From Raillietiella orientalis (lineage: Eukaryota), in assembly GCA_036172245.1 (NCBI GenBank), contig JAYWIR010000099.1, forward strand, positions 62,001 through 126,000: 64,000 nucleotides of DNA. Reading direction: 5' to 3'. How positions within the stretch are numbered: position 1 is the first letter of the stretch; every line of letters begins with the position of its first letter. This document shows positions 11,293 to 64,000 of the stretch, piece by piece. A program made the translations under genes and the position numbers. A model generated the notes under the pieces. That model saw only the letters and a program-made list of their open reading frames with translations. It was not told the origin of the DNA and ran no database searches.

Positions 11293-12563
11293 ACCTGGGG
11301 AGATACGACATGGCTCCCGTGTCTCATCTCCTTAGATCTCCTTTGCCTGCGTCCTTCAGAGATGCAGACGCGCGGGAGCCAACCGATAGTCTCCTTCATA
11401 GGCCATTCCGCCATTCTTCTTCCGCCTTTCCCAAAGAGGACGGTTCTGGTCAGCCAGCTGGTTTCACGGCATCCGACACTCTGCTTTTTAGGAGTCGGTA
11501 AGAGTGGGGCCGTGCTGGCACTGCACTTTTCTCGCTCACGACAAGCACCCAGGCGTCAACGGGTGCAAATCAAGGAAGGAAGCCGGGAGGGAAAGCTGTC
11601 CCGTCAGAAATGCTGCTGGCTGCGACGTCACGGTTCCAGAGGTCGCAGCCGGTTCGTTTCCGGAGGGCCTGTGCTCCGCAGAATTTCCGACTCCCCTTTA
11701 CCCCTTTCTCTGGTAGGGGAAGAGGACTGGGTGAGTGGACGACGGGCCAGCTAACGTACGCTGCGACCCGGAATGCCCCTCCCCGAGGACACCTTGGCGC
11801 TGGGACGAGCTGCTGGGCATTCCGGAGGAAGACCTTCAGTGATCCCTGGTGCTCATGAACCCTCCCCATCCCCTTTAAGTGGTAGGAGTCGGAGCTGTTG
11901 TTGCTGCATTGGGGTCTCGCGTGCAGCGACCCCGGCATCGCTAGATGCTAGGGGGGCAGAATGTGGCAGGTGCGGGGAGCAGGAATCCCTCCCGCACCTC
12001 CTGGTGGACTGTGTTTCCCGCCAGCCCCTTTGGGAACGCTCTGCCGCGACCCCTGGAACCCCTGGAGGCAACTCCAGGGACGCTCTGAAGCCCCTCCTCG
12101 TTCGCGACGCCCTTCTGCCGGCAGCCTCGCCAGCAGATTTCGGCTTCCTACGCAGGATCTCCACTAACTGGAGCCACTCAAGAGGAGGACCGAGCAACAG
12201 GGATTCCGCATCCACTTCGCTTTCTACGGATAGCGGTCAGGTGACCCCACCTGGGCATCTATATAAAGCAAGACCTAGCCGGCATACTCCAAAGGCTGCA
12301 GAAGACCAACCCCAGCATGCTGTAATCCCTTTCCGTATCCGCAACCCCCCATCCAGATTGTTTTATTTTTGTTTTGTTTATTTTTCTTTTTGTTTGGCCC
12401 TTTACCTCTGCAGCCGTGGTGGACCTCAGCGTTCGATGCAAACCGGTAAAAGGGCAGAGTATCTACAGAAAGAACGTGGTTGGACCCCGGGTCCAACCAC
12501 GTTTACAAATTGCAAATGCTTATTCTGTTTCTAAATAAACGTCCCGGCGAACGCGGGTGGAAA
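11293..12563 (+). mobile_element. Family A (A1-type) 5'-truncated L1/Tx1-like retrotransposon
   Basis: zf-RVT-like CGRCGEQESLPHLLVDC, T-rich 3'UTR, and end aataaacgtcccggcgaacgcgggtggaaa. The 5' boundary is tentative (possible TSD cgtcgcccttt/cgtcacccctt). Confidence 0.85.
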
Positions 12564-14405
12564 CGTCACCCCTTTCCGTCCAACCTAATGAGCACTTTGT
12601 TCCTGGTTCGCGAGCTCTCCACCAAATTACTACTTACGCGGAAGTGAACGAATTGCCAGTCCCCATGTCGATTAGGGGAGCGTGGGAGCTCCCGCCGCAG
12701 GAAAAAGACGTGCCTCTGGACTCCGAGTGACAAATTTACGATGGAATTTTCAGTCATGCCGGGCGTTCCAGGTGGTGAATAATTCAGCATCCCGGAACAC
12801 ACGAGGCGAAGCAACCGCTCTTCAGCGGCGGGAAAGAGGAAACGTCCCAGCTACAGGAGCGAACTCGAAACCTGAGTGCAGGCTCTGTCCAAAACATCGA
12901 TAAGCACGGAAGAAAAATTGGGTGAGGAAGATCAAAAGCCGGCTGAACGAGGAGTGCGTAAGAGGGGAAAATTCTCTCCAGTTAAAATTCCATCTAGGCG
13001 GAAACAGACCGTTTGCAAGACGAAGATTCGGCACAAGTTGCCCATTCGTTTCAGACTCGTGCCTTCCCGAATGCTGAAGGGAGGAACGAGGAGGGGGGAA
13101 CGAAAGGTTCCATTTCACGTGATGCAAACGCTTAATCAGACCTTCCGCACACGCCCTTTCTCCTGCCTCCCTAGCGATCGATCGCTCCGGGACGTCTTTC
13201 CGTGTGCTGCTAGGGGTTACTGCATCCCGCAAGATTGCGACTCGGTAAAGCTCACACACAAGAAAAAAAAAAAAAAAAAAAGGAAACGCATCTTCTCTTC
13301 GTAAGGGGCGGCCTTCACGTTCCGAGTTTTTTAAGCCCTACGAGGGGAAAGAGCAGTCTATCTTCCCGGTTCGTGCAGGCATACAAAAAATAGGTGCAAA
13401 GATTCCCGGTGACAGTCGAATTAACTCTTGGTTGCCACAGTAAGAACACGCACGTCGAACGTGAGAAACAGGGGAGAAAGCCACCTCCTGCTCCCTCGTC
13501 ATCTATGCGAATGCCCAGACATCGGAATGCACACGCCGTGGCGCAGCCTCGCTCGCCGTTCCCTCGAGCCAAGCTGCGGACTTCTCCGTTGCGCCTCACC
13601 TTGAGGAGGTGCGCCGGTAGCGAAGGACTGCTCCCGCTGCTGCCAAGCACCCTTTGCAGCATGCGGGGATCCGGCTTCCCCCTGAGGCAACTAGTGGAAA
13701 GTGGAAGCCCAACCGCGGTTCTCCCGACGCCCGACGAGCTGCAACGCCCGAGCAAGCCGGAAGCTGCTGAGTCCTGGACTGCAATCCAGGCAATGCTCCC
13801 TAAAGATCTTTGCCCACTGCGACACCTGTTGCCACGATCGTTGCAAGTGGTGATGCACGACGTGCTGAAGGGGCCGACCCATTCCTCGACGCAGCGCTAT
13901 CCTCCCTCAGGGCAAGAGACGGCAACCGGCGAGGTGGGAGTCTTCCTGCATCAACGAAGCTCCTTGGTGGCAGGGAGAGCGCGAGCTCGATGGATGCTGC
14001 TACTTCGCGTACCGTGGGGACGGGGCTCCTTCGGTGGGGCGAACTTTGGAGTGTTCCCTCCCGAGGAACTTCTGACCCCTCCCTGATGCCTGGACACTTC
14101 TGTGTTCCCGCTCTGTTAAAACAGTCTGTGCTGCTCTTCCTTTACTGGGATTTCAGCGCGATGAGCGCAGGCACCCCGTTTCCGCAGGGGGTGCATCCCG
14201 AACTGCTGTTCCTGCTGCAGGTCGGCGCAGTCAATCACGGCGCCCCTGCTTTTGGACCGCGGTGTTCTCCAGGAAGTGTGGTGTATACTGGCGTCAGCGC
14301 TCCTGCACCAGGAGGACGCTCTTCCAGAGACCTGCTGCGACGTTTCTTCGCGACTGGAGGGCTTTCGACGGGCACGGTGATTGCGACCATCGCAGCGCAC
14401 ACCTT

Positions 14406-15501
14406 TCCACACACGTCCACACAACTGTTTCATGACTAGAAGAAACAGCTGGCACGTGGGCGAAGTTAAACCAGTCTAGTGGTAAATCCTGGAACCGCCT
14501 GCGACCCGGCATCTACACCCGCTGCAGGCTGTGGAACGTGCTCGAGTGTCCCGCCAGAAGCACGTGGGAGGAGACGACCCCACTGACCACGGCGCTGCCC
14601 TTCCTGAGGAGGGTGCTCGGCAGCAGCCGAACTCCGAAGTGGCAAGTCTCCCGCCGTATAACGTGCAACAAGCTGTTAAGCGGCTGGACCATGAGGCAAC
14701 TGGCTGACGCCGCGACCCCGAACGTCCTCCCGCGAGGAATTCAGAGATGGTGCGAGCTGCTGGGCATTCCGCTGGCCATCCCTAAAGTGGCCCCCGGTAT
14801 TTGCAGACACGTCCATCCTCCCTCTCAAGTAGCAGGAAACGGCGCTGCTGCTGTTGCACTGGGGTCGTCCCTGCAACGCGCGCCGCCACCACTGGACGTT
14901 GGGGAACGTAGGACAGAAGTGTGCAGTGTGTGGGGAGAAGGAATCCCTCCCCACCTGTTATTGGACTGCTCTACCCTCCGGCGCTTGAGGGAACGTTTTG
15001 CTACGACCCTCCGTATGCCGGTCGGCAGTATCCCCAGAGACGTTGTGAGACTCTTCGTGCGAGACGCCCTGCCACCAGCCTCAGCCCTGGCAGCGCTCTG
15101 CTGCCTCCGAGGGACTGTGGCTGAGTGGAGCGCAGCCAACAGAGGAAGCAGCGATAGAGACTCCATCGTACACGCGGGTCGCTACCTGCGAATCGCGATC
15201 GGCTGGTCCCATCTGGGAGCTATGACGAGGGACCTCGAGGGCATCCTGGAAAGGATGGTCTCTTCCTCCAGCGGGCTGTGATCCCTTCCCGGCCCACCTA
15301 AGTGTTTCTTTTTTTTCTTTTTTGTTTTCCTTTTTATTTTTATTTTTGTTTTCTCCCCCATCCCCACCGCTGCCGAGGAGAGTCAAGCTGGTCTGCGCAC
15401 CGGCTTCCCAGCAGGCCCCACGATCTATTGGCCGTAGCGGGGCCTCGTACCGCAAATGTACAGAGTTTAGAAATAAACGCCCCGGCGTGACCGGGTGGGA
15501 A
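14406..15501 (+). mobile_element. Family A (A1-type) nested insertion
   Basis: TSD cacacctt at 14398-14405 / 15502-15509. ORF 14538-15281 contains PHLLLDC...VRDALPPA...WSHL. End aataaacgccccggcgtgaccgggtgggaa. Confidence 0.9.
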
Positions 15502-15509
15502 CACACCTT

Positions 15510-15829
15510 CCGGGTCCAATGATGTCGGCGCGCGTTGCATTGGGAGGCCCCAGTGCAACAGCAGAAGGGCCAAATCCTGCCAATTGAATGGGAGGGTGCG
15601 GTTGCTCAGGGGCGAAGGGGGCCACCCGAATCCTCACGGGGTACGCTCAGCAGCTCGCCCCAACGCCCAAGTCCCTTCGGCTGGAGGCATGGGGTCGCAG
15701 CGTCGGTTAGCTGGCCAACCAGGGAGAGCCCTGCATCTGGATGACGTCTCGCAGAATACTTCCTATTTAGCCGGCAGGTTGCTGCTGCCGAGATGCTCCC
15801 TCAGGGAGGGCAGCGCCGCGGCAAGGGAA
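15510..15829 (-). mobile_element. Inverted family A1 fragment
   Basis: The reverse complement encodes GQLTDAATP...RWGELL...WQDLALLLLHWGL(fs)CNARRHHWT and is homologous to 14580-14900. Confidence 0.85.
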
Positions 15830-16204
15830 TTTTATCGCCCGGATTTGCCGGGGCATTTGTTATAAGAAATTATAATAAAAGTTGTGATATTCACAAAACC
15901 GTGGTAGAACGCGTGGTTCTGCCACGCGCGAGGGACTTGCCAAGAACCGGTAAGCAGACCGGTGAAGGAAGTGAAGTGAATTCTGCCCACGCACACTTAA
16001 TGGGATACACGATGATCTCCTGGAGCGAGCGGTTGTTGTTGGAGTCGCTGCCGTAACTCCGGGTTCGGCTCGTTGATCTTCTCCCACGTGCGCACGGTTT
16101 CCTGAAGCACTGCCGGGGGGGGGGGGGGAAGGAGATCCAGGTGTCCTCCCTGGTCAACGCAGCCATGCGCCGCAGTTGTAGCCCGCAATGGGACACGTTG
16201 CGGG
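15830..16204 (-). mobile_element. Short divergent family A-like insertion
   Basis: Minus-strand end aacaaatgccccggcaaatccgggcgataaaa and UTR motif ggtctgcttaccgg. TSD gcgccgcggcaagggaa (15813-15829) / gcgccgcgcaaggaa (16205-16219). Confidence 0.7.
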
Positions 16205-19200
16205 GCGCCGCGCAAGGAAAGGGAAGAAGGAAATGAAGGAACGGCGGACGCCGGTGAGCCTCGTTCCTAAGCTCCCTTTACTTTTCTTATTTTTCTTTCT
16301 CGTCCCCCACTCCCTTTCGCTCCCTAAACTTCCCCGGTTTTCGTATATTGATCCCGGTGTATACGGAGCCATTCCAAACACTGCTGCCCCTTCCCTTAGG
16401 ATTTCCTCAATCTTTCTTTTTTGTAGTCTCCCCTCCCTTCTACCCCGTTCCGGACTTTTCGATATCCCGAACTGCGTGTCGGTGGATCCTCCCCCCGAGC
16501 CTCTTTTGTCTTCGGTCGGGAACTGCATCCCAGACTGGCTTATTTTATGAAATACACGTCCGGGCGTGACCGGGTCGAAAGCCTCGCTCTCCGAAGAGCG
16601 GCATCTATCGGATGTTTCGCCAAAGTTTTCGCGATGCCGTCAGCCTCCTTCCGCGGCTCTTTCCCGGATGCTCCCTCAGCAGCGTTTTTCCTTTCCCGTT
16701 GCTTTTCCCATGCACAAGTATTTGCGATTATTTGCAGTAACAGTTCTACAGCATCCAAACTTCCTTCCAAACAGGCGGGTGCTTATAAAACGTGTAAAAT
16801 CACCGTGGACCACGGGCAGCGCGAAGGAGAAATGGCGGCAGTCCCTCGCGTTCCCTTACGGCGCTGTGGAGGAACCTTCGGTGCACTTCTGGGCACCGTA
16901 CGAGTAGGATTAGGAACAGACTTCCATCTGCTTCAAGTTTTCGCAAACAGCAGCGTAGGAAGATGCGTTTCTCGGCAACGATAGCGACAGATCTGGGAGG
17001 AGGGGGAGGTGCACATCGAGTTAACAGCAACGGACGAAACTCCGAAAGCCCTTTTTCTTCCCCTTAATTCAAGGGAAAAGCATATTTTTTCTTTTGCCTT
17101 TTCGTTTTGGATTATATTGCTGCGATCGACGATTCGAAATGCATTTTGCGTGGCGCTGTTACGCCGTCCACGTGCACCCCCCCCGCACGGCGACACGGAA
17201 CGCGTCCTCCGTGCTGCACGCGGTGCTCAGACGGCACCTTTTGTACAGTTCGTTCCGGCTCTGTAGAAGGGGAACCCTGAAATGGAACCTGACCAAGCTC
17301 TCGGAGACCGCAAGGTCGCCTTCCTTCGCTCAGCATCTCGGCTACGCTCGCAGCGCCTCGCCCGTCCTTCCCACTCCCAAGTAGGAAGAAGAAGAATGCC
17401 GATGCAGAGAGCGTCGGTGCAGCGCGTGGAATGGTTCTTCCGGTTGGCGCCGAACCTCTTATCTCGAGTCGCGGGTTGCTGCTGTTTTCCGGAGACCGAT
17501 TCGAGGGGAATTTCCGTGAAATTCGTAATCTGATTGGTAGGTGTTCTTGCAGCTGCCCCTTCATCGTCGCATGCCACTCTGAGAGTGATTACGCAAGAGA
17601 ACGTGGGTCTTGCAGTACATTGGGTGCACCGGGTGCTGAGGTGAAGAGTCCCCTTGAACCACCACTTTGCTGAGGGAAAAGCATCCGAGTGGACGGTCTG
17701 GAATGCTCGTGCGGCGGGTCTCGTTCCAGGGCCCTTCCCCCCCCCCCTCGCGGGTCGCACGGGCGTCGGCTGCCTCGGCGTCTTTTACAACCGCCTCTCT
17801 CCTGATGCCCAGGAAACAGGGTGTTTGGGTGTTTCCAACTGTCTCCAGCATTTCCCATCCGATGGTCAGCGTTCACGCCATGTCGAGATTCGCCACTCGG
17901 ATTCGACCTCGTCCGGGATTCCTCCGGAGCGAGTGCAGGAGGTCTGCAGGGTTCGTTTCCACACCTTCTGGTGCTTATGCTTTCCTTTTGCTGGCATCTG
18001 TGTGGCTTCGGCTGGCGAGCACTGCTGTGTTAAGGAAGGCGTTCGAGCCATGAGGCTGGTGGTTTGGAATGGGGACGCCGCCTTCAGACACCCTCTTGCG
18101 GGTTTTCCCGGGTCATCTGTCCCACACCGAGCGATGAGCACGTGGAAAGATGCACCGTGCGTGCATCGCTGCGTGCCGCTCGGCGTTCATCTTTGGGGTC
18201 TTTGGATCGATGTTTGACTTTCGTTCCACACTGAAGTCCTCCATCATGGGAGGGAACGAGGGTTGCATGTCGGGAAGCAACTGGGCTTTGCGGGATGCGA
18301 GTGCTGCGAAAACCTTCCTCAGCTCGTCGACTGCCCTCTCGCGCGATCGTTTTTGGGCCAACGCTGCTCTCACAAACTCTGCTGCAGACTGATCCGTCTG
18401 CCGTTCTCTCTTCTTGAGCGTGAGTTCCCCTCGCACTTCCGCGATCCTTTGACGGGAGAACACCTGGCGGGGGTGGATGCTCCTCGCATCCCGGAATCCT
18501 GTGGGTGGTCGATTCGTCTCCCGCACTGCCCACGGAATCGTAGGGGAAGCACCGCAGGTCTTCCTCCTGGAGGGCATCTTCACGTGCTGGAATGTCGTGA
18601 CCCGGGACGTGCATCAGTCACCATCCATGCGGATCCTCATCTGCTAAGAGCAACTCGCTAAGAGCCCAGTCCGAGGTCCTTCGATTCGACTGCTCTCCAG
18701 ACCGAGCATTGGACAGTCTTGGAGGTGGTGGCCTGCGAAATCGCACTGCGTGGTATCCTTCTTTCGGAAGGATTTTGTTGTTGTTGCTGTGCATGTGAAA
18801 ATGCGCAAAACCTGTGCGGGCATTTTACTGTAATGTAATGTAGCAGTGAAGTGCGATGGATCATTCACGATGGAGATTCGTGAGATGGACAACACCTGCG
18901 GCGATGTAGTGCAAGATTGAAGAGTTGCTTTTTCCCGTGTCTAGACAAAAAAAAAAAAAAGGATGCTAATTTCGGTTCCTTCTTTCCTGCGGTTTAATGG
19001 ATGAAATCGATATGTGATTGATGCCACATATTGATAAAACATCAGCTGATCGCAAATTCCAGCGGTTTGCGTTTTTTAGCCCCGCAATCACAGCCAGAAC
19101 GGCTGCAGCGATCTTTGAATTCGAGCCTTTCGTGACGCTTCGAAATTCACAATTGATTTGAATCGAGCTTGATATTCGATAACGGGAGAAAAACAAACAG

Positions 19201-23569: not shown

Positions 23570-24390
23570 CTTAAAAACCTTTCCCCAAGGGGATCACGAA
23601 GGTCCTCAGAGCTGGCTGCGCCACCCGAGGGTGTGTGTCAACTCTTCAAGTTGAGGAAACACCCTAGGGATCCAGGAAGGCTCTGATCTTACGCTTGGAA
23701 GAAGAACCCTCGCCTTGGTTGTCCCCGGAGAGAACCCCGAAAGCAACCCTGGTTATCTCTGAAGGTCCCCATCGCCCTGGTTGTCTTCTCTTAGGTGCTT
23801 CTGAGAAAACTCTTACCCTGGTTGCCTCCGGAGAGAACTTCAAAGGTCACTGTTGCTCTGGTTATCTTCGGAACTGCCCTCCGGAAGGGACCCTCGATCT
23901 GGTTGTCTTCGGAGGAAACCCCAAAGGTCACCATCGCCCTGGTTATCTCCAGAGGAAACGACGGAATGAACCTCTCCTGATTTCTTTCTCTGAAGAGAAC
24001 GCGAAGGGATGCCTCCAAGTTTTTCTTAAGGGCGCTCTTCGAAGGGAACAGTGCGCTTCTGACACTCTGGAGAGGCAACTCCCGAGGGGGAATGTCCAAC
24101 CAGCTCCATGGTTTTCTAAGGAAGCTCCCTTTTCGCAGCTGGAGGATAACCCCGGAGGGTTCCTTGATTCCTGGAAGGACCCGGAAGGTCGGTCAGTCCG
24201 GTTTCCGGCTTCTCACCAGTGCTGCATACGAAGCCTTCTGGCCAACCAGCGTCCTCCTGCAAGGGAAGACTCGGGACTCACGACGCCCCATTTCTCTGGT
24301 ATCGACGCTTCCCCGGAAGGGATTCGAAGCCACAACGTTAAATGTGGAGCGTAGGGGTCGCAGCCACGCGGCTGCCGACGCGGGCAACGC
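23570..24390 (-). repeat. Dispersed repeat B copy with internal ~39-bp tandem array
   Basis: B head and tail blocks on the minus strand. Repeated ccctggtt(g/a)tc...ggagagaacc units at 23705-23955. Confidence 0.8.
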
Positions 24391-28599: not shown

Positions 28600-30010
28600 G
28601 CTTTCACTGCTTCCCTTCCAGCTTTTTTTCTTTTTTTGGTTCCCAAGGAGTGCGGGAGAACCGTTCGCCTCCTTAGGGCGAAGCTCTTTGACCCCTCAAA
28701 CGCCACCCGAGGGTGCGTGTGACTCCTCAAGTTAGAAGACGACCGCGTAGAGACCACCCTGTGAATCCAGGGAGGCTGCGTTGGAATGGGTTCGTTGCTC
28801 TTACGCTTGAGAGGAAAACCCCGAAGGGAATCCTCGCCCTGGTTGTCTTCGAAGAGGACCCGGAAAGAATCCGCTCCTGAAATTTCTTCTCCGGAGGCAA
28901 CCCACAAGGGATCGCTCCTGGCTACTCCTCTGAAGGACACTCCGAAAAGACACTTCCTAATTTCTCTGAAGAGTTCTTCCCGAAGGCAGCAGCGCGCTTC
29001 TTGACGCTCTGGATAAGTATCAATCAACCAGCTCCGTGGTGCGCGATGCAGGCGCTCCATGGAAACGGCTTTATTTTCACAACTGGAGAGGAACTCTGAA
29101 GGAAACCCTGCTTCGGTTGTCTCCGAAGGAAACTCCGGAGAAATGCTTTCTAATTTCTGTGAAAACTCGCTCCCCGGAGGGAATGGCGCCAGCAGAGGCG
29201 ACCTCCCGAGGGCGACATGAAGCAGCTCCGTGCCACGTGATGGTACGGCTTCATCTTCGCAAACTTCGGGAAACTGCGGAGGAAACCGGCCCATTGGTGT
29301 GCTGGAAGCACCCCGGAGGGTCAGCTTCCAATCACGACAAGCCAACGGCGGCATCCAGTTTCCAGCTTCCACCAGTACCGCAACTCGCGGCGGCGACACC
29401 AGAGACGTTTTGAAGCGCCTCTTCTTGCGCGACGTCCTCACGCTGTCCGCATCCCTAGCAGTAATTTGCTGCCCACGCGGCGGGGCCGTGGCTGCATGGA
29501 GCAGCGCTAGAGGAGGCCAGGACGGCAGGAACGCCATCTACTTCCTCATGAAGAGGGCAGCGTCAAAATGGCCCCATCTGGCAGTCCCCGAACAGGAACT
29601 TGCCGACATCCTCACAAGGATGCAGAGGACGCCCTCCAGCACACAGTGATCTCTTCCCGAACCCCCCTCATTTTTCGACTCCATGTTTTTTGTTTTATTT
29701 TTTTTCTTTTTGTTCGTCTCCCCTTCCCCTGTGCTGCCGAGGCGAACCCCGCTGGTCTGCGTGCCAGTTTCCGGCAGGTTCCTCCTCGTATTTGTAGGTA
29801 AAGTGGCAGAATCAAACGTTCTGCCACACACATGTATGTTTATTTCTTATAAATGAACGCCTCAGCGTGACCAGGTGTCGTGACCAGTGCCGCATCGGAA
29901 GCCAACCAAGGCCATCCCGCTTCGTCCTGCGGGAAGACACGGACCCACGACGTACCCCCGTTCTTCGAGTCGATCCTCCTCCACGTTTGAATTCGAACAC
30001 GCGCGGGGCA
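28600..30010 (-). repeat. Dispersed repeat B copy interrupted by a family A insertion
   Basis: B 3' part at 28600-29382 and B 5' part at 29883-30010, which are contiguous once the insert is removed. An internal ~170-bp duplication lies within about 28930-29290. Confidence 0.8.
29383..29882 (+). mobile_element. Family A (A1-type) 5'-truncated insertion in repeat B
   Basis: TSD accagtaccgca (29371-29382) / accagtgccgca (29883-29894). Encodes RDVLKRLFLRD...KWPHL...ILTRMQ. End aatgaacgcctcagcgtgaccaggtgtcgtg. Confidence 0.9.
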
Positions 30011-31585
30011 CCGCAGCTAAGCGGCCGCCGCCAACGCATCTTTTATTGACCTTGTGTGGGAGGGTCTCAAGTGGTGTTCCTCGCTCCTGCACGACGACAC
30101 GCTCCTGCCGCTGTTCGCGAACCGGAGGTCCGTACCGCTGGTTTCATCCTAAGCAAATGTTTGCACGGAAGTTTCGACTGCTTCTCCATGCAACTGCCAT
30201 TCCACTCTCTCCTGCAACGGCTGCTGCCCTCCCACCAACAAAAAAAGCTTTCGTTGCATCTCCGCGGCTGCCTTCGTCTCTGTGGAACTGCACCGATTTT
30301 CTGCCTACTGGGACGTCCTGGCCGAAATTTCCACTCCGCCTTTCTTCTCTTCCGAGTTGCCAGCTGTCGGCACTTCCTCCTCGCTCCTCCGAGTCGCCTT
30401 TTGGAAGCTGTGGGCTGGACAACGGGGCCACCTGGCATGGTCTGCTTCAGCTTCTCATCCGGCTGGAAACCTTCAGCTTCGAGGCCACACCCGTAGGTTT
30501 AGCTCCGTTGGATTCCTCCTCCTGCGGCTTGGTCAGCGTGCAACCCGCTGGCCACTGGTTTCTCCTAATGAACTTTCCTTTCCTCCCCTTCGCCAGTGAT
30601 GCGTGCCCACGCTCGTGGTGACTCTTGTCGGTGCTGAATCAAAAGCTTGATGTGGATTCCCCTTGACCTCACTTGTCCGTAAAGGCTGTTTCAGCTCCGG
30701 CTCGAAAGTGCGCCCCTTCGCCCCATTGCGTCAGCTGGGAAAATCAGTTCCTTGTTTGCGGCAGCTGCCGATTGCTCAACGCCGGGATGGTGAGAGCCAT
30801 TGCAGAGGCTCCGATGCGCGCGGACTGCCCGGAAGCAAGTCCGGGGTCGAGCGACAGGTCGGGCAGCCCGTGTTGGCTGCACGAGCGGCGCCCGAAACGC
30901 GCTGGCTCCAGCAGAGGCGCGCGCTCCTCGCTGCACGCTGATTTGCACCCTCTGGCGCCGAGGCGTTCATTTCACAAAAATAGAGGAAACCTACAGGCTG
31001 GTAAAGCAACCGTCGAGGCGACGATTTTTTAATGAAAAGGTCGAAAGGAACTTCAAGGGGAAGGGTTCACTGACACACCTGACCGGTTTCCTGAACGTCC
31101 AGAGCGAGGGGATAGGGACAAAAATCAAAAACAAAAATAAATTGGAAAACAGGGGAAGGGGCTTCGGCTTTTCCCGTTCCTTCATGAAACATCGCTCTGC
31201 ACTCAGAGACACCAGTCGAGAGAGACTTTGCGGAGCAGCTGCTTTCGGAGGGCGCATCGGCGGGAAAAGGGTAGGGGCGCCCACGTGTATCAGTCCCTTT
31301 CGGTGGCGGGGACCGCCGATGGCAACGGAAAACTCAAAAAGTGCAAAGCACCAGGAAAGGATCGGCAGTCGGCCGGGTCCTTCCAGCTTTTTCCCGCGGG
31401 AAAAAGTTGGAAGGACCCAAGTGGCGCCGCCTGGAGTGGAACTCGCGATGATGATTCGAGAGGGGAGCATGGTAACTGCCTCTTCCGGATAGCTCGAGTC
31501 CGCCTACCCGGAAACGAGGTCACCTGCATAGCGCATCAGCTTAGGTTGGGTAAGGTTGGGTTTCGCCCGGTTAGGTCAGCACAGG

Positions 31586-31928
31586 CCCATCGAGGGCCGG
31601 AGAAGCAGGCGACTCGTCGACAGGCCAACGGAATAGCCGACGAGTCGGCTGCCGGGTGGGCTCATCTTCCGGAAGACGCGAGGAACGAGATCTCCGGCAT
31701 CCAACGGCGGTTCTGAAAGGAGGGAACGGCCGAAGCCAAAGACCCCCTCCATATTTTTATTTCTATTTTTCATGTGTGTATTTGTGGTCCTCTCCCTTCC
31801 GTTGCGGACTTTCGGATGTACCGACCTGCGTGTCGGGGAGCCCTAACTTCGTTTTTCAGTGTCCTTTGTCCGGGAACTTGGTTCCCTGATAGTTTAGCAA
31901 TAAACTCCCCGGCGCACCCGGGTGAGAA
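31586..31928 (+). mobile_element. Family A (A2-type) short insertion
   Basis: Perfect TSD tcagcacagg (31576-31585 / 31929-31938). Encodes GWAHLPEDARNEISGIQRRF*. End aataaactccccggcgcacccgggtgagaa. Confidence 0.9.
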
Positions 31929-34399: not shown

Positions 34400-35520
34400 A
34401 GGGCGACGGCGACGTAAGGAGAGGAAGCAGCCGCTGGTCTCGGATTCGGCGATTCCCGGAGGCGACCCGACAATAACTCCGACGTGACAGGCACCCGGAG
34501 CCACGGGAAAGACCCCACGCGGCACGACCGCCTCGGACCTCGCCTGCCCGCGCGGGAACGTAGCAGCGGCCGCTCTTGCTGGCCGAAGAGAGAGGTGCTC
34601 GTGGCAGCGACGTTCGAGGAGATCCGGGAACCCGCGGGTTATCCCGACAGGCAGCAGGAAACATGCAGCCTCTCGAGTGCCACCCTCGAGGGAAAGACGG
34701 AGATTCACCCACCTGCCCTCGCGTGCTCTTCTCAAAGTCGGCGAAGCCCTGGAGTCGGGCTGTCTCCAGGAAGAAGACGAGGACAGTGACAACGACAGGA
34801 GAGTCGGGCGCTGCGACCTTGCAAAGCCATCGTCTGGCTGGCGGCCACAACCCCCCAGTGCTCCAGGATGTCCCTCCCGACCCAATCGCCAGGTCTTCTC
34901 TGCGCAGGTGCGGAGCAGAGTCCCTTCTGCACCTTCTAGTAGACTGCGTTGCCCTCCGTCCCCTGCGAGAACGCGTCTTCGCCGCTCACTGCGGATTCCT
35001 GAGGGCAACCCCAGAGGGGTTCTGAAGCGCCTCTTCCTGCGCGACGCCCTCACGCCAGCCGCATCCCCAGCAGCACTTTGCTTCCCACGAGGCGGGATCG
35101 TGGCTGCACGAAAGAACACCAGAGGAGGCCAGGACGGCAGGGACGCCATCTATTTTGGTGTCCTCTTCATGAGGACAGCGTCAAGGTGCCCCACCTGGAA
35201 GTCTTCAAACAGGAGCTTGCTGGCATCCTTACAGGGATGCAGAAGACGCCCTCCAGCACCTGGTGATCCCTTCCCGAACCTCCCTTTCCATTTTTTGTAC
35301 ATATTTTTTGCATTATTTTTACTATAAATAAACGCCCTGGAGTGATCGGGTGTCAAACCAGGACTTTCTGGCGGAGTCGCGTGCTTATCGGTTGACTCAG
35401 TCCGTTTTCTTGACCTCTGGGGAAGAAGCCACACCAACGTTCCCTGACTGCGATGTCTGCGCCCTTCCCCCCCTCCTTCTCTCCCGGTGTGACGACCCTC
35501 TGGTGCGCCGGCTGCCGAAA
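34400..35520 (+). repeat. Repeat C copy interrupted by family A
   Basis: Homology to 23180-23500 (reverse) on both sides of the insert at 34903-35357. Confidence 0.6.
34903..35357 (+). mobile_element. Family A (A1-type) 5'-truncated insertion
   Basis: RRCGAESLLHLLVDC. End aataaacgccctggagtgatcgggtgtcaaa. Imperfect TSD ccaggtcttctctg (34889-34902) / ccaggactttctg (35358-35370). Confidence 0.85.
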
Positions 35521-40085: not shown

Positions 40086-41534
40086 TTTCTCACGAGGTCA
40101 CGCCGGGGCATTTATTCAGTGTAAACAGAGAGATCATAAAAAATAAACCAGTTGCGAACACAGTTGACAACTGACGACTGGGCAAAAATGATGGGGAATT
40201 CACCTGGCACGCAGGCCGGTATGACATCTCTCAGAGTGGGGAAAACAAACAAAAAAAAACAAAAGAAGAACAGTGGGTGGGGTGGGACAAGGGTGTGTGG
40301 GACAACCCTTGTCCCAACAGTGGGACAAGGGTTTTGGGGATCGCTCCGCAATGCGCCGGGATGCAAACACTAGCACCGAGAATTCAACGGAGCGAACGGG
40401 GATGGGACATGGGTGGGTGAGAGGTCACAGGAGTCACCGGAGTACGCAGTTCTTAAGAGTCTGTGTACCGACGATGGATGCTGGTGATGTCCCCCTTCAC
40501 CTCGTCATGAAGGTGAGACCAGCTTGCAGACTTCTCCATGGATTCAGCTGCAAGCAGGTGGGCCTCTCTTCGCTGCACTGACCACTCCAGGGCGTAGCGG
40601 GCCTTGACGATGGCGCGGATGCAACATATGGTTGCGACGACCACGCCTATCGAAAGTCCGTACCAGCTGAAGAAGCGTCGTAGCACGTCCATGGCAGTGC
40701 CTCCCTGGGGCATGATGGCCGAAATCAGCCTCCGCCACAGCTCGCGGAGGTCACCGCAGTCCAGCAGAAGGTGCGGAAACGACTCGATCGCCCCGCACCT
40801 CGAGCAGTTTGGCGGAGCAGCTCCCCCGGAAACGATGCTTCGCTGCCGATTACAGTGGAATCCCCAGTGTAAGAACAGCAGCGCATCTTGTTCCCATTTC
40901 AAGGGGAACACGCAGCTGTCCAAACAAAACGGGGGGGACCACTACCTCTTCGGGGTGCACACTTAACTGTTCGCTGCACCGAAGCAGGCCCTTCGCCCTA
41001 TGTCGAGGAGTGGCGGTTTCCACCAGCTCCTTTGTCGTCCAGCCGCCGAGGGGCTTAGACAGACACTCCTGCAGCTGTGCAGGAGAACTCCGCCATTCCG
41101 CCGGTAGGCAACTGTCGCTGCTTGCCCTGAGGGCAGACAGCGCTGCGGCGAGTGCTGTGGCGGCCAGACGATCCGCCTTCTTCTTGTCCTGCATGACTTC
41201 GTCCAGGGGATGACTCAGGAGAAGTCGCAGGCGTCGAAGATCTTCCTGGCGCGTTCCTTCGGAAGCGGCCCACGACGCAAAAGATTCCTGCCGCCATGCA
41301 TTAGCGTTCATGGGGCGGCAGGAGATCCAACTTTGGGCTTCCAGCAGCGAGGACAGCTGCCTCAGCGGGAAGCCAAACCCTTTCCTGGCTGTGCCGAAAG
41401 TGGGGCAGCAACGAAAGGAGTCCTTCGTTGCCCGTGCAGCGCAGGAGTAGAAGGCGCGCGGGTGAGCATCACGGCGTACACCACAGCTTGGCACAGAGCC
41501 GCAGCTGGATGCTGGTCATGTCGAGGATGCCCAA
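40086..41534 (-). mobile_element. Family A (A2-type) insertion
   Basis: ORFs 40850-41494 and 40453-40923 (LLFLHWGFHCN...CSRCGAIESFPHLLLDC). End aataaatgccccggcgtgacctcgtgagaaa. TSD gcgtgcatctcgac (40071-40084) / gcgtgcatcctgac (41535-41548). Inserted antisense in an ORF1-like sequence (GHLGHTAEDAP). Confidence 0.9.
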
Positions 41535-41832
41535 GCGTGCATCCTGACGCGGCGCGAGATGGAAGGGGCGGTAAAGGCACCTCCTCGAGTCGTCGCGCGG
41601 GCGACCGGTGCTCCAGCGCGGAGGCTGCGGGTGGTGGCGACTCCTCGCGTCATGACAGCGGGCAGTTGCAGGCCCGCTGAGCGGTCGAGCGAGCGGGTGG
41701 CCGCTGCGAGGGAGTCAGCCGCAACCCTTCTCCGGGAGATTCTCTTGACCTTGCATTTCGGTCTGCTTCTCCTTGCTCCCTGAGAGGCCGCGCCCTCTCC
41801 ATCCTCTGCTGCGCGCACCTCCTGGTTCATCG

Positions 41833-42330
41833 CTCCCGGTCACTCCGGGGCGTTTCTCATAGGAGGGACGAAGGCGATCGTCGAAGGGTGGTGGGACTTT
41901 CGGTCCTGCCAGCCTCCAAAACCCGGGAACTGCCGATATGCCGGTGCGAACCGGCGGAGATCGCTGGGCAACGAGGGGCAGGTACTGAGCAAAATAAGCA
42001 AACCAGTAAATTAATCCGCAGAAACAAATAAATGATAATAAATGAAAATTTAACTAATTAATGAAAATAGGTGCATAATTTTAGATGAATAAATTAAAAT
42101 ATATTAATTGATTAAAAATAAGTAGATGAATAAAACATGAATAAATCAAAATATAAATATAAATGAACGAATAAATTCGAAAGTGAATAAATAAAAACAA
42201 GTAGATAGATAATGACAAAGGTAAACAGGTAAGTAAGAACAAATAAATAAAAATGCATAAGTAAAATAAATACAGAGGACTGGTTTGGGAGGGATTCGGG
42301 AAAAGATCGCAGTTCGTTGCGGGCTGCCCT
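41833..42330 (-). mobile_element. Family A 3'UTR-only copy with expanded AT-rich tract
   Basis: Minus strand: gatcttttcccgaatccctcc, a (TTTA)-rich expansion at about 41990-42270, ggttcgcaccgg..ggcag, and end gagaaacgccccggagtgaccgggagcg. Confidence 0.75.
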
Positions 42331-43359
42331 CTCACAGCCCACTTCTTTCGCTGCCTCCGCTGAATTCATTGCAGGACTGACCACCGTCCTCCCCCGGCGC
42401 ACCCAAATTTCGAACCGGGAAAACCAAGGAGCGGTCCCGTCTGCCCCCGGTCGCCCCGGAGCGACTGTTGCGAAAAGAAAGTGCGGACGATCGAACGGTC
42501 GTCCAGCGGAGAGGAAGGCGCCCGAACTCCGCGGACTCTCCGGTGCCCGTGGGGCATGCCTGCCTCGCCGCGAGCCTGGAAGAGGAAGCGGCACGAGGCC
42601 CGCTGTCCCGCCATCCCCTTCCGGCGCAGTCCGACGGGAGCAAAGTAGCCGCGACGGCAGCGGCAGGCTGATAGGCACCGCTGAGCCGACCTATGGGTAA
42701 GCGACTCGCCGTTCTCTCCACCCAGAGTTGCCAGGGCACTTATTAGAAAAATTACGAATTTACATTTCTTTTCGAGTGGTCGAACTCGCGGTCCTGTCAC
42801 GTCCTAAAATAAAGGGCGAGGTGAAAGCTGCCGAGTTGCCGACACGCAGAGCAAGGAGGTTCCCTTCCGGATAAACTAATAATGATAATAATATACAAAC
42901 AAAGAGCGTGCTCTTCCGGGGTGGGAAGAGCAGCTCGACGTTGGCTCTGAGGCGATGCGTGAACAGTCGGTCGGTCGCGCGGTTCCCCAAGGGAGGCAAA
43001 GAGCTGTTATGGCTGTGACCGACAGAAGGATAACCTTCTCTTGGGATCGCGAGATTTTCTTCCCGAGGGTCCTCCGCGAAGAGTCCCTTCGTGATCCCGC
43101 ACGATGGTCATCTTTCTGCCGAGCACAGCCACAGCAGCTCTGTTTCCGTCCTGGACGAAGAGGAGTTTAAAAACGCCCCTGGCGCTGCCGACCAGGATCC
43201 GTAGGGCTGCTAAATAAAAATAAATGAATAATGCACGGGTCAAGAAACCCCGAGACGTCCGAAAGACGAGCGGGTTGGATGGTGGACGCCGCCAATCCTC
43301 GAAAGAAATCGTATTTCGGTCTTGGCTGCTGCGGCTCCGCTTCATTCAAGGCGGGGGCC

Positions 43360-43770
43360 GTGATCGCAAGCACCTGTTGGCTCCGCGCCATGGTGACAGC
43401 CCTGCCATGCCTTGGAGTCTCGTTGGCTGCCAAGAGAGGTCACCAGCATGTCAGCCGACCGCCTACATGAGGATGGCTGCTGAGAGGTGACTCACCTGCC
43501 AGAAGTCATCGGAAAGGTCACCATCATCCACGGCCTCTTCTAGAAAGAAAGGAACGAAGAAAACCAGAGACCCTTGTCCCTATCCTCCCGTCTTCTTGTT
43601 ATTTATTCATTGTCCTTTCCCTCCGTTCCCTGCCTCTTCAGAAGGCGGTCGTGATCATCCCCAATAGACTTTTTAATTTTCTGGCATTTCTCGTATTCAG
43701 GGGACGTCTCCCCTCTGACTTGGGGTTTGTTTACTTTTCAAATAAATGTCCCGGAGCGACCGGTTAGAAA
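43360..43770 (+). mobile_element. Family A (A2-type) short copy
   Basis: WLRAMVTA...THLPEV C-terminus. End aataaatgtcccggagcgaccggttagaaa. Tentative TSD gcgggggcc/gcggcggcc. Confidence 0.8.
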
Positions 43771-48399: not shown

Positions 48400-49253
48400 C
48401 GACGTGGATGTCGTACCATGGGACGTGTGGGACCATGGGACAGCTGGCGGATGCCACGACCCAGAGTGTCCTTCCGTGAGGACTGAAGAAATGGGGCGAG
48501 CTGCTCGGCATCTCGACGGATGACCTGAAGTGGTCCCCAGTGATATCCGGGAGAAGGATCCTTCCCCTAAAGTGGCAGGAGTCAGCGCTTATGCTGTTGC
48601 ACTGGGGACTCTCTGCAACGCGCGCCGCCACCACTGGACACGGGGGCGAATGAATCCAAACTGTGTTAGGTGCGGGAAACGGAAATCCCTCCCGCACCTC
48701 TTAGTTGACTGTGTTGCCCTCCGGCCCCTTTGCGAACGTTTCGGTACGACCCTAGGGATCGTGGAATGCAGCCCTCTCAGAGACGTTTTTCGGCTTTTCT
48801 TCGTGCGGGACGCCCTGCAGCCAGCTGCTGTCGTAGCAGCGTTCAGCTGCATCCGCGGTATTGTGGCGGCCTGGAGTGGATCCGGCGAAGGAGAAGATGC
48901 AAAGGACAGGGACGTCATGGAGTACGCAGCTCTCTTTCTGCGAATAACAAGCCGATGGCCTCACCTGGGAAATATGCAGAAGGACCTCGTCGGCATCCTG
49001 CAAAGGATGGACCCTCCCCCCAGGGGACAATGATTCCTTCCCGACCCTCAAAAGAACTATGGTTTTTTCTTGTTTCAGTTTTCTTTTTTTCCATTTTTTT
49101 TTTTTCCCCCAACCCCATCCGCTGACGTGGAGTGTCAAGGCTGTCTGCGCACCGACCACCCGGCAGTTCCCTATGTTTTATTGGCCGCAGCGGGGCCTTC
49201 CGCAAATACCGAAAGTTTTTAAATAAGCTCCCCGGCTTGACCGGGTGAAAACG
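48400..49253 (+). mobile_element. Family A (A1-type) insertion in the RLE element
   Basis: ORF 48530-49033 (CNARRHHWT...CVRCGKRKSLPHLLVDC...RWPHL). End aataagctccccggcttgaccgggtgaaaa. TSD tcggtggagc (48390-48399) / tcggcggagc (49254-49263). Confidence 0.9.
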
Positions 49254-53389: not shown

Positions 53390-53572
53390 GGAATGGGGAG
53401 AAATTGCTCTTTGCCTTCCCGAAACTTCTCCGAACAGCGACCATGGACAGGAATGCTACAGTCGTGAGTGTTTGCATCTCGGCAGCGGTCCGTGGTCTCC
53501 CAGTTCCTTCGGAAAGGAGAGTCGCTGTTCGGAGAAGTTTCGGGAAAGCGAAGAGCAGTTTCCCCCCATTCC
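53390..53572. repeat. 52-bp inverted repeat with 79-bp spacer (MITE-like)
   Basis: 53390-53441 matches the reverse complement of 53521-53572 at 48/52, and the inner 26 bp are perfect. Confidence 0.9.
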
Positions 53573-58859: not shown

Positions 58860-59580
58860 TGGCGGCCATGTGGGACTGCGGTCTCCTCGCTTGGTACCGC
58901 GCGTTGCAGGGTCGAATCTCACACAGGAAAGGGTAGACGCGAGAAATGGTAGCGCCGTGGGTTTTCAGCTCCCCTTGCAAGATAACGCTTGTTGACCTAT
59001 TCGAGTGCGGCACTGGTGGGAAGCCGGAAACCGGGGTCCTTTCAGGAATCAAGGAGACTTTCAGAGCTCCCCTCCGGTTGTGAAAATGGAGCCGTTACCA
59101 TAGAGCGCCTCCATCGCGCACCGTGGAGCTGGTTGATTGCTACCTCCCCAGAGTTCAAGAAACTCTCTGCTCCCTTTGGAGAGCGCTCTTCAGAGAAATT
59201 TGGAAGCTCCCTTCGGGGTTCCCTTCAGAGAAGCGAACAAGGAGCGGATCCTTTCCGGGTTCCCTTCGGAAAAGAAACGAAGATTGGCTCCCTCCGGAGT
59301 GCTTCCAGGGTGCCGCATCTCATCCCTCCGGTAGTCCTTCCGGAGAGAATGAGGAAGAGGTTCTCTTAGGGGTTCCCTTCCCAAGTTCAAGAAGAAAAGA
59401 CTCCTTCCTCCGGAGTTTTCCTGGGTTTACAGGGTAGTCCCTACGGGGTTTACCCTCCGTAACTTGAAGAATGACACGCAACCTTGGGCAGTGTGAACAC
59501 CCGAGTGTTAAAGAGCTAAGGAGAGGAGTGGTTATTCAGTGCTCCCTGAAAACCAAAAGAAAGAAAACGAAGAAGAGAAA
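58860..59580 (+). repeat. Dispersed repeat B copy, near complete, with empty family A target site
   Basis: Head, uninterrupted tgcggcactggtgggaagccgg, CENGAVTIERLHRAPWSWLI block (compare 29020-29085 minus), tail and A-rich stretch. Confidence 0.85.
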
Positions 59581-60524
59581 GCGAAGCTGCAAAGAAAACA
59601 TCGGAAACAGAATAGCGCAGTAGAATTTTCATCGGCCTGAGCCAATAGTGACTTTGGTTCCATTTTTTCAACCATGAACCACAATGTTGTTCAGTCAAGA
59701 CCTCCGGTAAACGATCAGTCCGCATCCGAATCTCTGACACGACTGAATCCATCGACTGCGTGAGCAGTGGAACGATCCCACATGGTAACGAATATCCGGA
59801 GGATGACTAATTCGGAAGGAAGGGGATGAAAGCGGCTTGGAGACAGCTTTGAGCAAGTGCCTTAGACAGCCTTCAGAAAATGCTGCCAGAGTTTTCGCGC
59901 CCGAAGTGTTCCTGCCTCAGTTCCCGTATCTTGGCCACATGTAGTCGCTTTGCAAGGGCTAAGAAACCGTCCAGATGATTCATCATTCCATAACTAATGA
60001 CAGAAGAAAGAATGGATGGAGAAGACACAAAAACTGAGCCCCGGATCGATTGAAGCATGAGAAGCTCTAGTATGTTGCAGGTGCATCTGCTGGAAACCTG
60101 GAGCGAATGGGTTTGCATCTCGAACGGACTCGTTTCCCCTAGAGAAAGAACCATGCAGCAAACTTCATCCCAGGCTTGACTTCTGAACCCTGAAAACGGG
60201 TAACCAGTAAAAAGGGACGAACAGAGCAAGTAGATTTGTGCCAGTAGATTAAGAAGTGGTGTGTTGGTAAAAGTTTACAGGAGCAATTAATGGAACCTGA
60301 CGCCCTTATTTTGTTTCACGACAAATAAGGTGACAAATAAGTGTTCAGTTGAATCATCTTGAATGTAAGTAGCTTTCGAGCTGAGAATTCAAAGTGCTTC
60401 TTGTGTGGTTCATCACAGAGCTGCACACTGTGAAGATCGTTTCACGCCAGCAACGTGAGCTGGGAATGGCAGCCATTTTGGCGTTTTCTCGATCCTTCGA
60501 AACTTTTCCCCCTAGTTACGAAAA

Positions 60525-60670
60525 ACTGCATTGTTGCGTCTATATTTAGAAGCGGTCGTTTCCCCCAGGTTGAAGTACCGCATTGTTGCGTCCATATTTA
60601 GAAGCGACCGTTTCCCACGGGTTGAAGGACAGCATTGTTGAGTCTATATTTAGAAGCGATCCCATTCCAC
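60525..60670. repeat. Minisatellite, 52-bp unit x ~2.8
   Basis: acngcattgttgcgtctatatttagaagcg...gttgaag units start at 60525, 60577 and 60629. Confidence 0.95.
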
Positions 60671-61410
60671 TGCACGAACTTACCGAGCAAGTTGAGCATT
60701 ACCTCAGTCCCATGATCAGAACATGAACGACCCGCACGACCATCCATCCATCGCACTTCTTTCCATGTTACTTCTGTTCATCCAGAGTGCATTGAGTTGT
60801 GCACTTGAGATGGGAGGAGGGGGGACTTCAGTCCTGGACACTGCACAATGCAGAAGCCCCCCGTGTAACGCTCAATCGTGGTGACGCGAAGAAAGGATGG
60901 CGGCCGTCTTCGCGTGGCTACGAATCAGCCCTGCACGACTCTTTTGTGGCAGCTCTGTTGTCAGCAGATTTCATCTCACCCCACTTGAATCTTCTTGTCT
61001 TAAATAGAAGGTGCATTTTTAACCACGTGAGAGGTAGAAATGAGTTGGGAATCGTTTAAACTGATTACTTCTTTTAATTGAGTGATTTTACTTTTTATTC
61101 TAACGTAAAGCGGTAAACATTTTACTGATATAACGTTGAAGGCAGTTTTTCATAACTTATACTTAATTATGCATGCATAACCCACAGGAATCGTATACGC
61201 GTATTATACATGTATAACAACACACAGGACTCGTACAACGTGGAACGCAGTTGCCACGTCAACCGGGAGCCAAGAGTGGGGGAAAAAAAAAGAGCAAAAA
61301 TTCCGTTCCCACCATTTAGACAACTTTCACTGCTGCGAAAGCATGACTCCTGATCACCTGCTGTACTTTCGAGGTTTTTTCTTTTTGTAAAATTTCGGAA
61401 CCACTGACGT

Positions 61411-63299: not shown

Positions 63300-64000
63300 T
63301 GGTCCCCGCGCGCGGCACAAAGAGTTGCCGATTCGAATCTCCACGTGTCCAGACATGGGTGCGTCCTGGACTTCCAGTTCCTCCCCAAGATGACGTTGGT
63401 TGGCATATTTAAGTGCGGCACTGGTTGACACTTTGACGTGCCAGAGCATTTATGTATAAAATAAACATACATGTCTTTGGCAGGAACCCGCCACGTTACT
63501 TATGAATACGGAAAGGAACCTGTCGGGATCTGGCACGCAGACCAGCGGGGTTCGCCTCGGCAGCACAGGGGAAGGGGAGACGAACAAAAAGAGAAAAAAT
63601 GAAACAAAAAACATAGAGTCAAAAAATGAGGGGGATTCAGGAAGAGATCACTGTATGCTGAAGGGCGTCCTCTGCATCCTTGTAAGAATGTCCGCAAGTT
63701 CCTGTTTCAAGACTCCCAGATGGGGCCACCTTACGCCGTTCTAATGAAGAGGACAGCAAAATAGATGGCATCTCTGTTGTCCTCTGGCGTTGCTCCATTC
63801 AGCCACGGCCCCGCCGCGTGGGCAGCAAAGTGCTGCTAGGGATGCGGCGGGCGTAAGGGCGGCGCTGGTGCAAGCCGGAAACTGTATGCCCCCGATGACT
63901 GGACAGGATTGGAAGATGACCCTCCGGGGACTTTCGGGGTTACCCTCCGAATGTGAAAACGGAGCCGTTGCCATGGAGGGCCTCCATCGAGAACCATGGA
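63300..64000 (+). repeat. Dispersed repeat B copy interrupted by family A (runs off window)
   Basis: caagatgacgttggttgg...tgcggcactggt | insert | gcaagccggaaac...gactggacaggattggaagatgaccctccgggg. Confidence 0.85.
63426..63858 (-). mobile_element. Family A (A1-type) insertion in repeat B
   Basis: Reverse-complement homolog of about 29435-29882. TSD gcggcactggt (63415-63425) / gcggcgctggt (63859-63869). Confidence 0.9.

Follow-up and report, generated by a model that had tools for sequence, protein, structure and literature searches.

A hairpin-capable 3′ terminus without poly(A) in L1/Tx1-type LINEs of Raillietiella orientalis and their insertion into sibling elements

The window, which is the whole stretch of 64,000 nucleotides analysed here from a Raillietiella orientalis contig, carries at positions 15472..15501 a LINE end that raises the question of how an L1-type element can be copied when it ends in a short hairpin and no poly(A) tail. 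Human L1 depends on the pairing of the last four primer bases with poly(A), and R2 primes without complementarity, according to the available portion of the text of PMC3649969. The locus bears on the initiation of reverse transcription where poly(A)–oligo(T) pairing is lacking, and on whether stringency was ancestral to L1-type elements, a question raised in PMC3472496. Because the signal spans only 30 nt, its junction is fixed to the base and natural variants of loop and stem occur, the question is directly testable.

The motif reads exactly as the first-pass annotation had written it. An AATAAA hexamer, which resembles a polyadenylation signal and follows a T-rich tract, occupies 15472..15477 of the forward strand. 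After CGC comes the hairpin at 15481..15495 (+), with the arms CCCGG and CCGGG around the loop CGTGA; its fold energy is −10.5 kcal/mol. TG and the 4-nt terminal overhang GGAA complete the motif (15496..15501, +), and the offsets of target site duplications (TSDs) suggest that the element ends there. A tight pattern of the motif found 394 exact copies in the 210-Mb genome and 0 for the reversed control. By an HSP70 search this genome falls among animals, with at most 84% identity among the matches listed, and the gene together with the genome size suggests an invertebrate. Within the 64-kb window, 9 sites had at most 5 substitutions, compared with 0 in each of 100 composition-keeping shuffles. 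Most of the twelve ends listed in the annotation withstood inspection: 10 fit the motif within 5 edits, and the other two (15836-15861 and 63429-63454, both on the reverse strand) are more decayed but recognisable. The end at 41833..41858 (−) is doubtful, with GAGAAA in place of AATAAA and no T-rich tract before it. Two decayed candidate group-A ends that had not been listed lie at 42719-42744 (−) and 30946-30971 (−).

From all fetched loci we collected 146 non-redundant ends, referred to as group A, after the removal of two duplicates and one false hit. In these ends, which were chosen by motif likeness, the AATAAA hexamer has 0–7 mismatches per position, and the element end lies 24–31 nt downstream of it. 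TGTA was found in 56 of 145 upstream 60-mers versus 16 in a control window, and the T content is 0.47 upstream versus 0.21 downstream of the end. The motif is common to three long group-A ORF2s that are only 53–68% identical, which bears out the earlier statement that strongly diverged subfamilies share it, and group-A UTRs split into many separate clusters despite the common motif. We conclude that the motif is real and that it terminates LINEs with an APE endonuclease and a reverse transcriptase (RT). A metagenome pattern scan gave 3 motif matches, none of them with blastx LINE homology or a T-rich tract, and these were taken as chance; no relatives were shown in the other scanned genomes.

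The copy that ends at 15501 is a 5′-truncated group-A LINE (14431..15501, +), 88% identical to a younger copy over 1075 nt. Its ORF2 C-terminus runs to about 15281 and is followed by a pyrimidine-rich 3′ UTR. The host sequence behind it (15502..15835, −) is the ORF2 of a sibling LINE in the opposite orientation, and this index copy lies antisense at the HHWTxG zinc-finger codons of that ORF2 (aa about 1092-1093). Elsewhere on the forward strand, truncated group-A copies were found at 11706..12563 (end motif 12534-12559; TSD of 11 bp with 1 mismatch) and at 48438..49251 (end motif 49222-49247), and a group-A copy with nested insertions at 13560..16580 (end motif 16551-16576; TSD of 13 bp with 1 mismatch). 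A TCAA-type copy of about 500 nt occupies 29380..29882 in its usual CCAGTGCCGCA target, with a 14-bp TSD containing 2 edits; for another at 34900..35356 (end motif 35327-35352) a TSD was looked for and not found. A short copy with the loop CGCAC (31586..31928) has an exact 10-bp TSD that begins 4 nt after GGGTG, and upstream of a decayed end at 43741..43770 ORF2 homology was looked for and not found. The reverse strand holds a group-A end with the loop CAAAT at 15832..15861, followed by ORF2 sequence of the same strand. It also holds an AGAA-type copy at 40087..41558 (end motif 40091-40116; 66–80% amino acid identity to the AGAA subfamily) and a TCAA-type copy at 63425..63869 (end motif 63429-63454; 16-bp TSD with 2 mismatches).

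The annotation had placed most of the ends downstream of a zf-RVT-like ORF. blastx detected ORF2 C-terminal homology directly upstream of 7 of the 12 ends, and the zf-RVT match itself is weak (E 4e-4, below the curated cut-off, in the long relative P0001). Nine copies had been credited with TSDs, a number that we did not reproduce: 5 of the 12 are credible, 2 are weak (15472 and 49222), and for 5 copies no TSD was found. The window copies are old, being 12–30% diverged from young copies, and their TSDs may therefore have decayed. At 15472 the left and right flanks come from different host elements, so that the TSD of the index copy is not established. In a Pfam scan of 118 ORFs of the window the LINE fragments were too decayed, and the sole match was a piggyBac-type transposase, a fragment of which lies at 1165-1866 (+; DDE_Tnp_1_7, E 2e-45). 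Three tandem copies of 52 nt were also seen at 60520-60675, and a MITE-like 52-nt inverted repeat around 79 nt at 53390-53572.

Long copies encode an ORF1 with a CCHC knuckle (zf-CCHC, E 2e-4 in A and 5e-5 in B) and an ORF2 of about 1200 aa. ORF2 consists of an APE endonuclease (EN), an RT and a C-terminal Cys/His finger, and the catalytic motifs are present. The group-A ORF2 matches human L1 ORF2p (E 3e-45) and L1 EN structures (E 1.5e-5), Exo_endo_phos and RVT_1 domains were found in group B, and the best database matches of the RTs are annotated as LINE-1-type. One database protein (P0347) shares 75.5% identity with group A; after it, the 44 best of 150 database matches reach at most 35% identity to any of ten RTs. 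The motif-bearing lineage A was sampled in five subfamilies that are 63–84% identical in RT, and its copies range from 48 nt to about 5.9 kb through 5′ truncation. Lineage B was sampled in four subfamilies (RT 56–78% identical), and lineage C is represented by three copies found in the genome. The RTs of A, B and C are 30–40% identical to each other.

We placed these RTs in a quick maximum-likelihood tree of 87 sequences, whose backbone is unresolved and whose reference set is without named Tx1 elements. A+B+C formed one clade (SH-aLRT 99) apart from vertebrate L1, plant L1 and the CR1/R2 outgroups, and a CR1/R2-like/BS/Chlorella group (SH-aLRT 97) excluded them. The clade does not join a large group that carries the motif QT(Y/C)xVPGR, which we take to be Tx1-like. 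Judged by their EN and RT domains and by the RT tree, A, B and C can be assigned to the non-LTR retrotransposons of the L1/Tx1 superfamily, in agreement with the first-pass annotation. They appear to be a deep-branching group of L1-like elements in a tree from which Tx1-clade references are absent. Compared with L1 EN, the group-A endonuclease also appears to have a shorter loop ahead of the IDH motif (L034:5699-6370 (−)). This loop is a region reported to shape target choice.

The lack of poly(A) extends over the whole genome. None of the 394 exact-motif copies continues with NN+A5, genome-wide no hairpin continues with NN+A8, and none of the 146 non-redundant group-A ends has A8 within 40 nt. 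Young copies were checked for long poly(A) after the motif and none carries any, so that the tail-less end described by the annotation is upheld. The exact copies read NNAA and then a non-A in 176 of 394 cases, and an A stands at position 3 after GGGTG in 141 and at position 4 in 137 of the 146 ends. In B and C, the longest A run after the hairpin is 3–4 in 32 of 36 ends. AATAAA and a hairpin without poly(A) are the layout of all three lineages.

TSDs show where the junction lies. An exact repeat of 10–20 bp is present at 30 of the 146 ends, a few of them probably by chance. We calculated offsets for 21 fetched copies with an exact repeat of 11–20 bp, and the TSD starts at offset 4 after GGGTG in 11, at offset 3 in 4 and at offsets 5–7 in 6, most of the last with one mismatch near the start. 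The TSDs of these LINEs are 10–17 bp long, 1-nt microhomology was found in 5/21 copies, and both A and B have the 4-nt overhang. No TSD among the 21 begins with AAAA, which indicates that the primer strand is not T-rich; at most one A occurs among the first four TSD bases in 16/21. Because the TSD starts 3–4 nt after GGGTG in 15 of the 21 and with AAAA in none, pairing of an A-tail with a T-primer as in human L1 does not set the junction. The TSDs, together with 5′ truncations down to 48 nt, support the earlier claim that the copies were made by target-primed reverse transcription with variable 5′ truncation. Two marks of relaxed mammalian-type L1 were looked for and not found, a poly(A) tail of varying length and TSDs that begin with AAAA, as a TTTT/AA-like nick would leave them. 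The elements seem to work like stringent target-specific LINEs, and we do not claim membership of the Tx1 clade for them.

Each of the five stem pairs of the group-A hairpin is kept in 137–142 of the 146 ends, mostly unchanged. The loops vary between 4 and 6 nt while the arms remain paired. Nine different loops, of 5–6 nt, were seen at least twice, and the variants include a GAAA loop closed by A-U and a six-pair stem with a CGTA loop. Changes on both sides of the five core pairs occur in only 2 of 730 cells, so group A has essentially no covariation, and what is conserved could be the sequence of the motif. Folding does not set the index hairpin apart from its shuffles (z −0.65), and z lies between −0.65 and −1.54 for 5 of the 7 termini folded. 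We disfavour the reading as a palindromic DNA-binding site, given that the spacer length ranges from 4 to 6 nt and that changes of the G-U type are the most frequent.

The stem covariation that is lacking in group A was found to some extent in the sister lineages. In the B/C terminus AATAAA is separated by four or three bases from a hairpin whose outer stem is CCCCA/TGGGG and whose inner stem is CC(C/G)/(G/C)GG, with an AC(T) bulge. The variable inner pair of group B is C-G in 92, G-C in 8 and mixed in 0 of 100 listed copies out of 135, and the stem of lineage C is CCCTCA/TGAGGG, with U-A replacing C-G at another pair. Across the 14 related rows of a B/C alignment, pairing holds in 89.9% of cells, and double-sided changes affect two pairs. 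The covariation score of these rows exceeds that of 500/500 shuffles; their count of doubly changed pairs is not above shuffles (211/500). The covariation amounts to about two evolutionary events. The hairpins of A and of B/C cannot be aligned, so that a common origin rests on the tree and the layout. We infer that the hairpin could act as an RT-recognition signal. A SINE sharing the terminus was not seen among 142 ends, a sample biased to LINE loci: 128 of the 142 have ORF2 upstream, and the other 14 are without a B-box match within 400 nt.

These subfamilies insert site-specifically; their targets are conserved codons of the EN, RT and zinc finger in sibling LINEs, and most of the insertions are antisense. 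The copies of this survey were gathered by ORF2 similarity or by motif, and not by flank; among near-identical loci some may be duplicates of assembly or segmental origin, and the counts would then be a little too high. LINE sequence is present in 96 of 146 group-A flanks. Copies with the AGAAAT or CGAAAT loop lie antisense at the TCGA of the RT motif DLRKAF|D (aa 592) in 24 of 38 cases. A further 2 lie within 4 codons of aa 592, 2 are in sense orientation at a neighbouring TCGA, and 6 are followed by that TSD and the 5′ end of another copy. All six AGAA copies are at the EN motif QEIHV..QE|I (aa 78), and 4/6 GCAA copies are at WRPIT..K (aa 510). The subfamily of the index copy has 13 of 35 copies antisense at its preferred site, the zinc-finger codons aa 1091-1093. 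DNA recognition is suggested by one off-target copy (L103), which keeps the upstream CGCAG and the TCGA.

The TCAA copies insert in 8/10 cases in a repeat with a B-box-like motif. This repeat family has short internal repeats and the B-box-like motif at 23697-24232, 28821-29135 and 59000-59206 of the window and at loci L033, L038, L024 and L018. The motif resembles what we take to be the B box, GGTTCGAATCC. The repeat is probably a tRNA-derived SINE; Rfam gave no tRNA match in loci L038 or L018.

Group B forms head-to-tail arrays of 5–5.7 kb units. Some of these lie antisense at the end of a group-A ORF1 with the spacer CTGCCGAGTCGG (loci L084-L089 and L092-L095; contigs C26, C53, C139 and C150). 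Arrays of B1–B3 have U4 snRNA sequence at their junctions (L077, L078 and L081; C71 and C114), where the hairpin and AAAA take the place of about 19 nt at the start of U4, the arrangement that insertion into U4 genes would give. We disfavour U4 snRNA as a 3′ tail of group B, since copies of B at other places stop at the hairpin plus 4 nt and then pass into unrelated DNA. Two further readings were rejected: telomeric arrays like those of HeT-A, on account of the mixed array polarity at contig ends, and a Helitron-type end, on account of the RT and the TSDs.

How the junction is set may be explained in several ways. On balance we think it somewhat probable that these are target-specific, 'stringent' LINEs of the L1/Tx1 superfamily in which ORF2p attaches to the hairpin and begins reverse transcription from a fixed position. 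The RNA would end near the hairpin, probably through AATAAA-directed host cleavage, and hairpin-bound ORF2p would then set the template, so that cDNA begins 4 nt past the helix and any poly(A) is left uncopied. The endonuclease of each subfamily would nick a short target of its own, with a primer strand that is not rich in T. Priming would be independent of A:T pairing, and R2-like rather than human-L1-like. With targets in conserved sibling-LINE codons, nested clusters and head-to-tail arrays separated by a TSD would be the outcome. Several results count against a role of the hairpin in binding ORF2p: the missing covariation in group A, the weak fold z, the 6/21 TSDs at offsets 5–7, the absence of a partner SINE among the 142 ends and the selection of ends by motif likeness.

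The same fixed junction would be obtained if RNA reading through the element end into the donor flank annealed to the nicked target, as in R1Bm. Such pairing would drop poly(A) from the copy and reinforce the subfamily targets, and the hairpin would mainly bring AATAAA nearer to a cleavage site inside the flank. The flank is near-constant within a subfamily, so that RNA from the donor would fit the target; the target is restored in tandem arrays; and R1Bm needs downstream target sequence for accurate initiation, as the consulted part of PMC7265360 reports. However, off-target copies have the same 4-nt overhang, and so do the copies of a loosely targeted subfamily, in whose flanks only about CT(C/T)CC is common. 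Where the left and right TSDs mismatch, the right one is not favoured in its fit to the subfamily consensus (8 cases, by eye), and no clear 3′ transductions were seen. We therefore regard annealing of the donor flank as unlikely, though with some real chance of being correct. The motif might instead be only a 3′-processing cassette of a T-rich/TGTA element, AATAAA and the hairpin, at which host CPSF cuts at one base with no need for a downstream GU element, and RT starts at the base of the poly(A) independently of the hairpin. The hexamer is as conserved as the stem, and the distance to the end, the TGTA excess and the drop in T content reported above would fit such a cassette. It leaves unexplained why no copy gained five or more A and why the group-A stem sequence is nearly invariant, and we consider it quite unlikely.

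An RNA that is not polyadenylated at all, but cut or trimmed to the helix and a 4-nt overhang so that RT starts at a true 3′ end, would account for the lack of tail-length variation and for the 4-nt overhang in both A and B. This kind of end can be likened to the acceptor end of tRNA or to the end of histone mRNA. However, the perfectly kept AATAAA at a canonical distance argues for normal cleavage and polyadenylation, and the stem polarity, C-rich and then G-rich, is unlike that of the histone stem-loop. We judge such trimming very improbable. A wider proposal builds on the preferred reading, in which ORF2p measures from the hairpin, and we put it forward only tentatively, as more doubtful than probable. 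An L1-type clade may have swapped poly(A)-primed copying for a handle made of a helix and a 4-nt overhang, with ORF2p as the ruler. The endonuclease would thereby have been freed from T-rich targets, and families would nick the EN, RT and zinc-finger codons of their rivals, gaining a safe site and disabling the rivals. If the ruler reading is true, the clade would offer a natural set of APE endonucleases that differ in their targets and are coupled to a cis signal of 30 nt. Tail loss linked to non-T-rich, family-specific targets would explain the diversification of L1-type endonucleases, and the clade would supply natural site-specific insertion enzymes for study.

A 3′ stem-loop is not new to the L1 clade, and the suggestion of an undescribed arrangement was overstated in this respect. 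Ohshima (2012, PMC3472496) has described a conserved 3′ hairpin in the monocot-1a L1 lineage (LINE1-1_ZM with ZmSINE2/3), and families without any 3′ repeat are listed there for 9 of 233 L1 families in flowering plants and 5 of 15 in green algae. The monocot-1a elements are likewise LINEs of the L1 clade and are much more strongly conserved at the 3′ end than elsewhere, with a pyrimidine-rich tract, an AATATA-like hexamer, a hairpin and a 4–5 nt spacer (PMC3472496). However, their hairpin shows compensatory changes, with a varying stem and a kept loop and flank (PMC3472496), whereas in group A the stem is fixed and the loop varies. They end in poly(A) and have partner SINEs (PMC3472496), and here neither poly(A) nor a partner SINE was seen. 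Their host is a plant; the present elements are from an animal, and their RTs cluster apart from plant L1.

Site-specific insertion has its own precedents. In the available sections of Kojima (2015, PMC4494074), Tx1L is in Tx1D, Tx1-Mar in Mariner-N4, Keno in U2 snRNA, and Tx1-8_Crp and Tx1-4_AMi in LTR elements. Those Tx1-clade LINEs are also animal APE-type elements with family-specific targets in mobile elements or snRNA genes, but the targets found here are conserved coding motifs of sibling LINEs, mostly in antisense. Neither sibling-LINE coding targets nor a hairpin terminus is reported for Tx1 families in these sections of PMC4494074. Zepp of Coccomyxa/Chlorella is similarly an L1-clade LINE in clusters of nested copies, as the accessible part of PMC3446292 relates. 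However, it is one family nesting in itself, whereas here several families cross-target distinct codons, and Zepp ends in poly(A) (PMC3472496). The tail-less hairpin end and fixed insertion in transposons thus each have separate precedents. Within the part of the literature covered, which lies outside Repbase/Dfam and includes few subscription papers, a tail-less, hairpin-ended animal L1/Tx1 lineage and the targeting of sibling RT or EN codons were not found. The present study contributes the findings that tails are absent throughout the genome, that the primer is not T-rich and that a hairpin extends across the clade, with paired changes in B/C; beyond the first-pass annotation it also adds the fixed 4-nt overhang, the clade-wide distribution and the site-specific insertion into sibling elements.

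R2Bm, R1Bm, SART1 and UnaL2 require a 3′ UTR structure for copying, as stated in the portions available of PMC3649969, PMC7265360 and PMC3747384. The present elements share with stringent-type LINEs a hairpin-capable 3′-terminal sequence that is conserved far beyond the UTR, and with R1/R2-type elements site-specific insertion; the priming of R2 without complementarity (PMC3649969, in its available part) would be a further likeness. However, R1/R2 and the L2-type stringent LINEs belong to clades other than A+B+C, SART1 depends on poly(A), and the end of UnaL2 consists of TGTAA repeats (same portions of PMC3649969, PMC7265360 and PMC3747384). The R2-like elements of the same genome group with the outgroups in the RT tree, and in those located in 28S rDNA (L175, L186) AATAAA abuts the target directly, without a hairpin. 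A U2 snRNA gene was also observed beside RT-bearing ORFs that are distant from A, B and C (L176:7116-7293), and these are possibly U2-associated elements.
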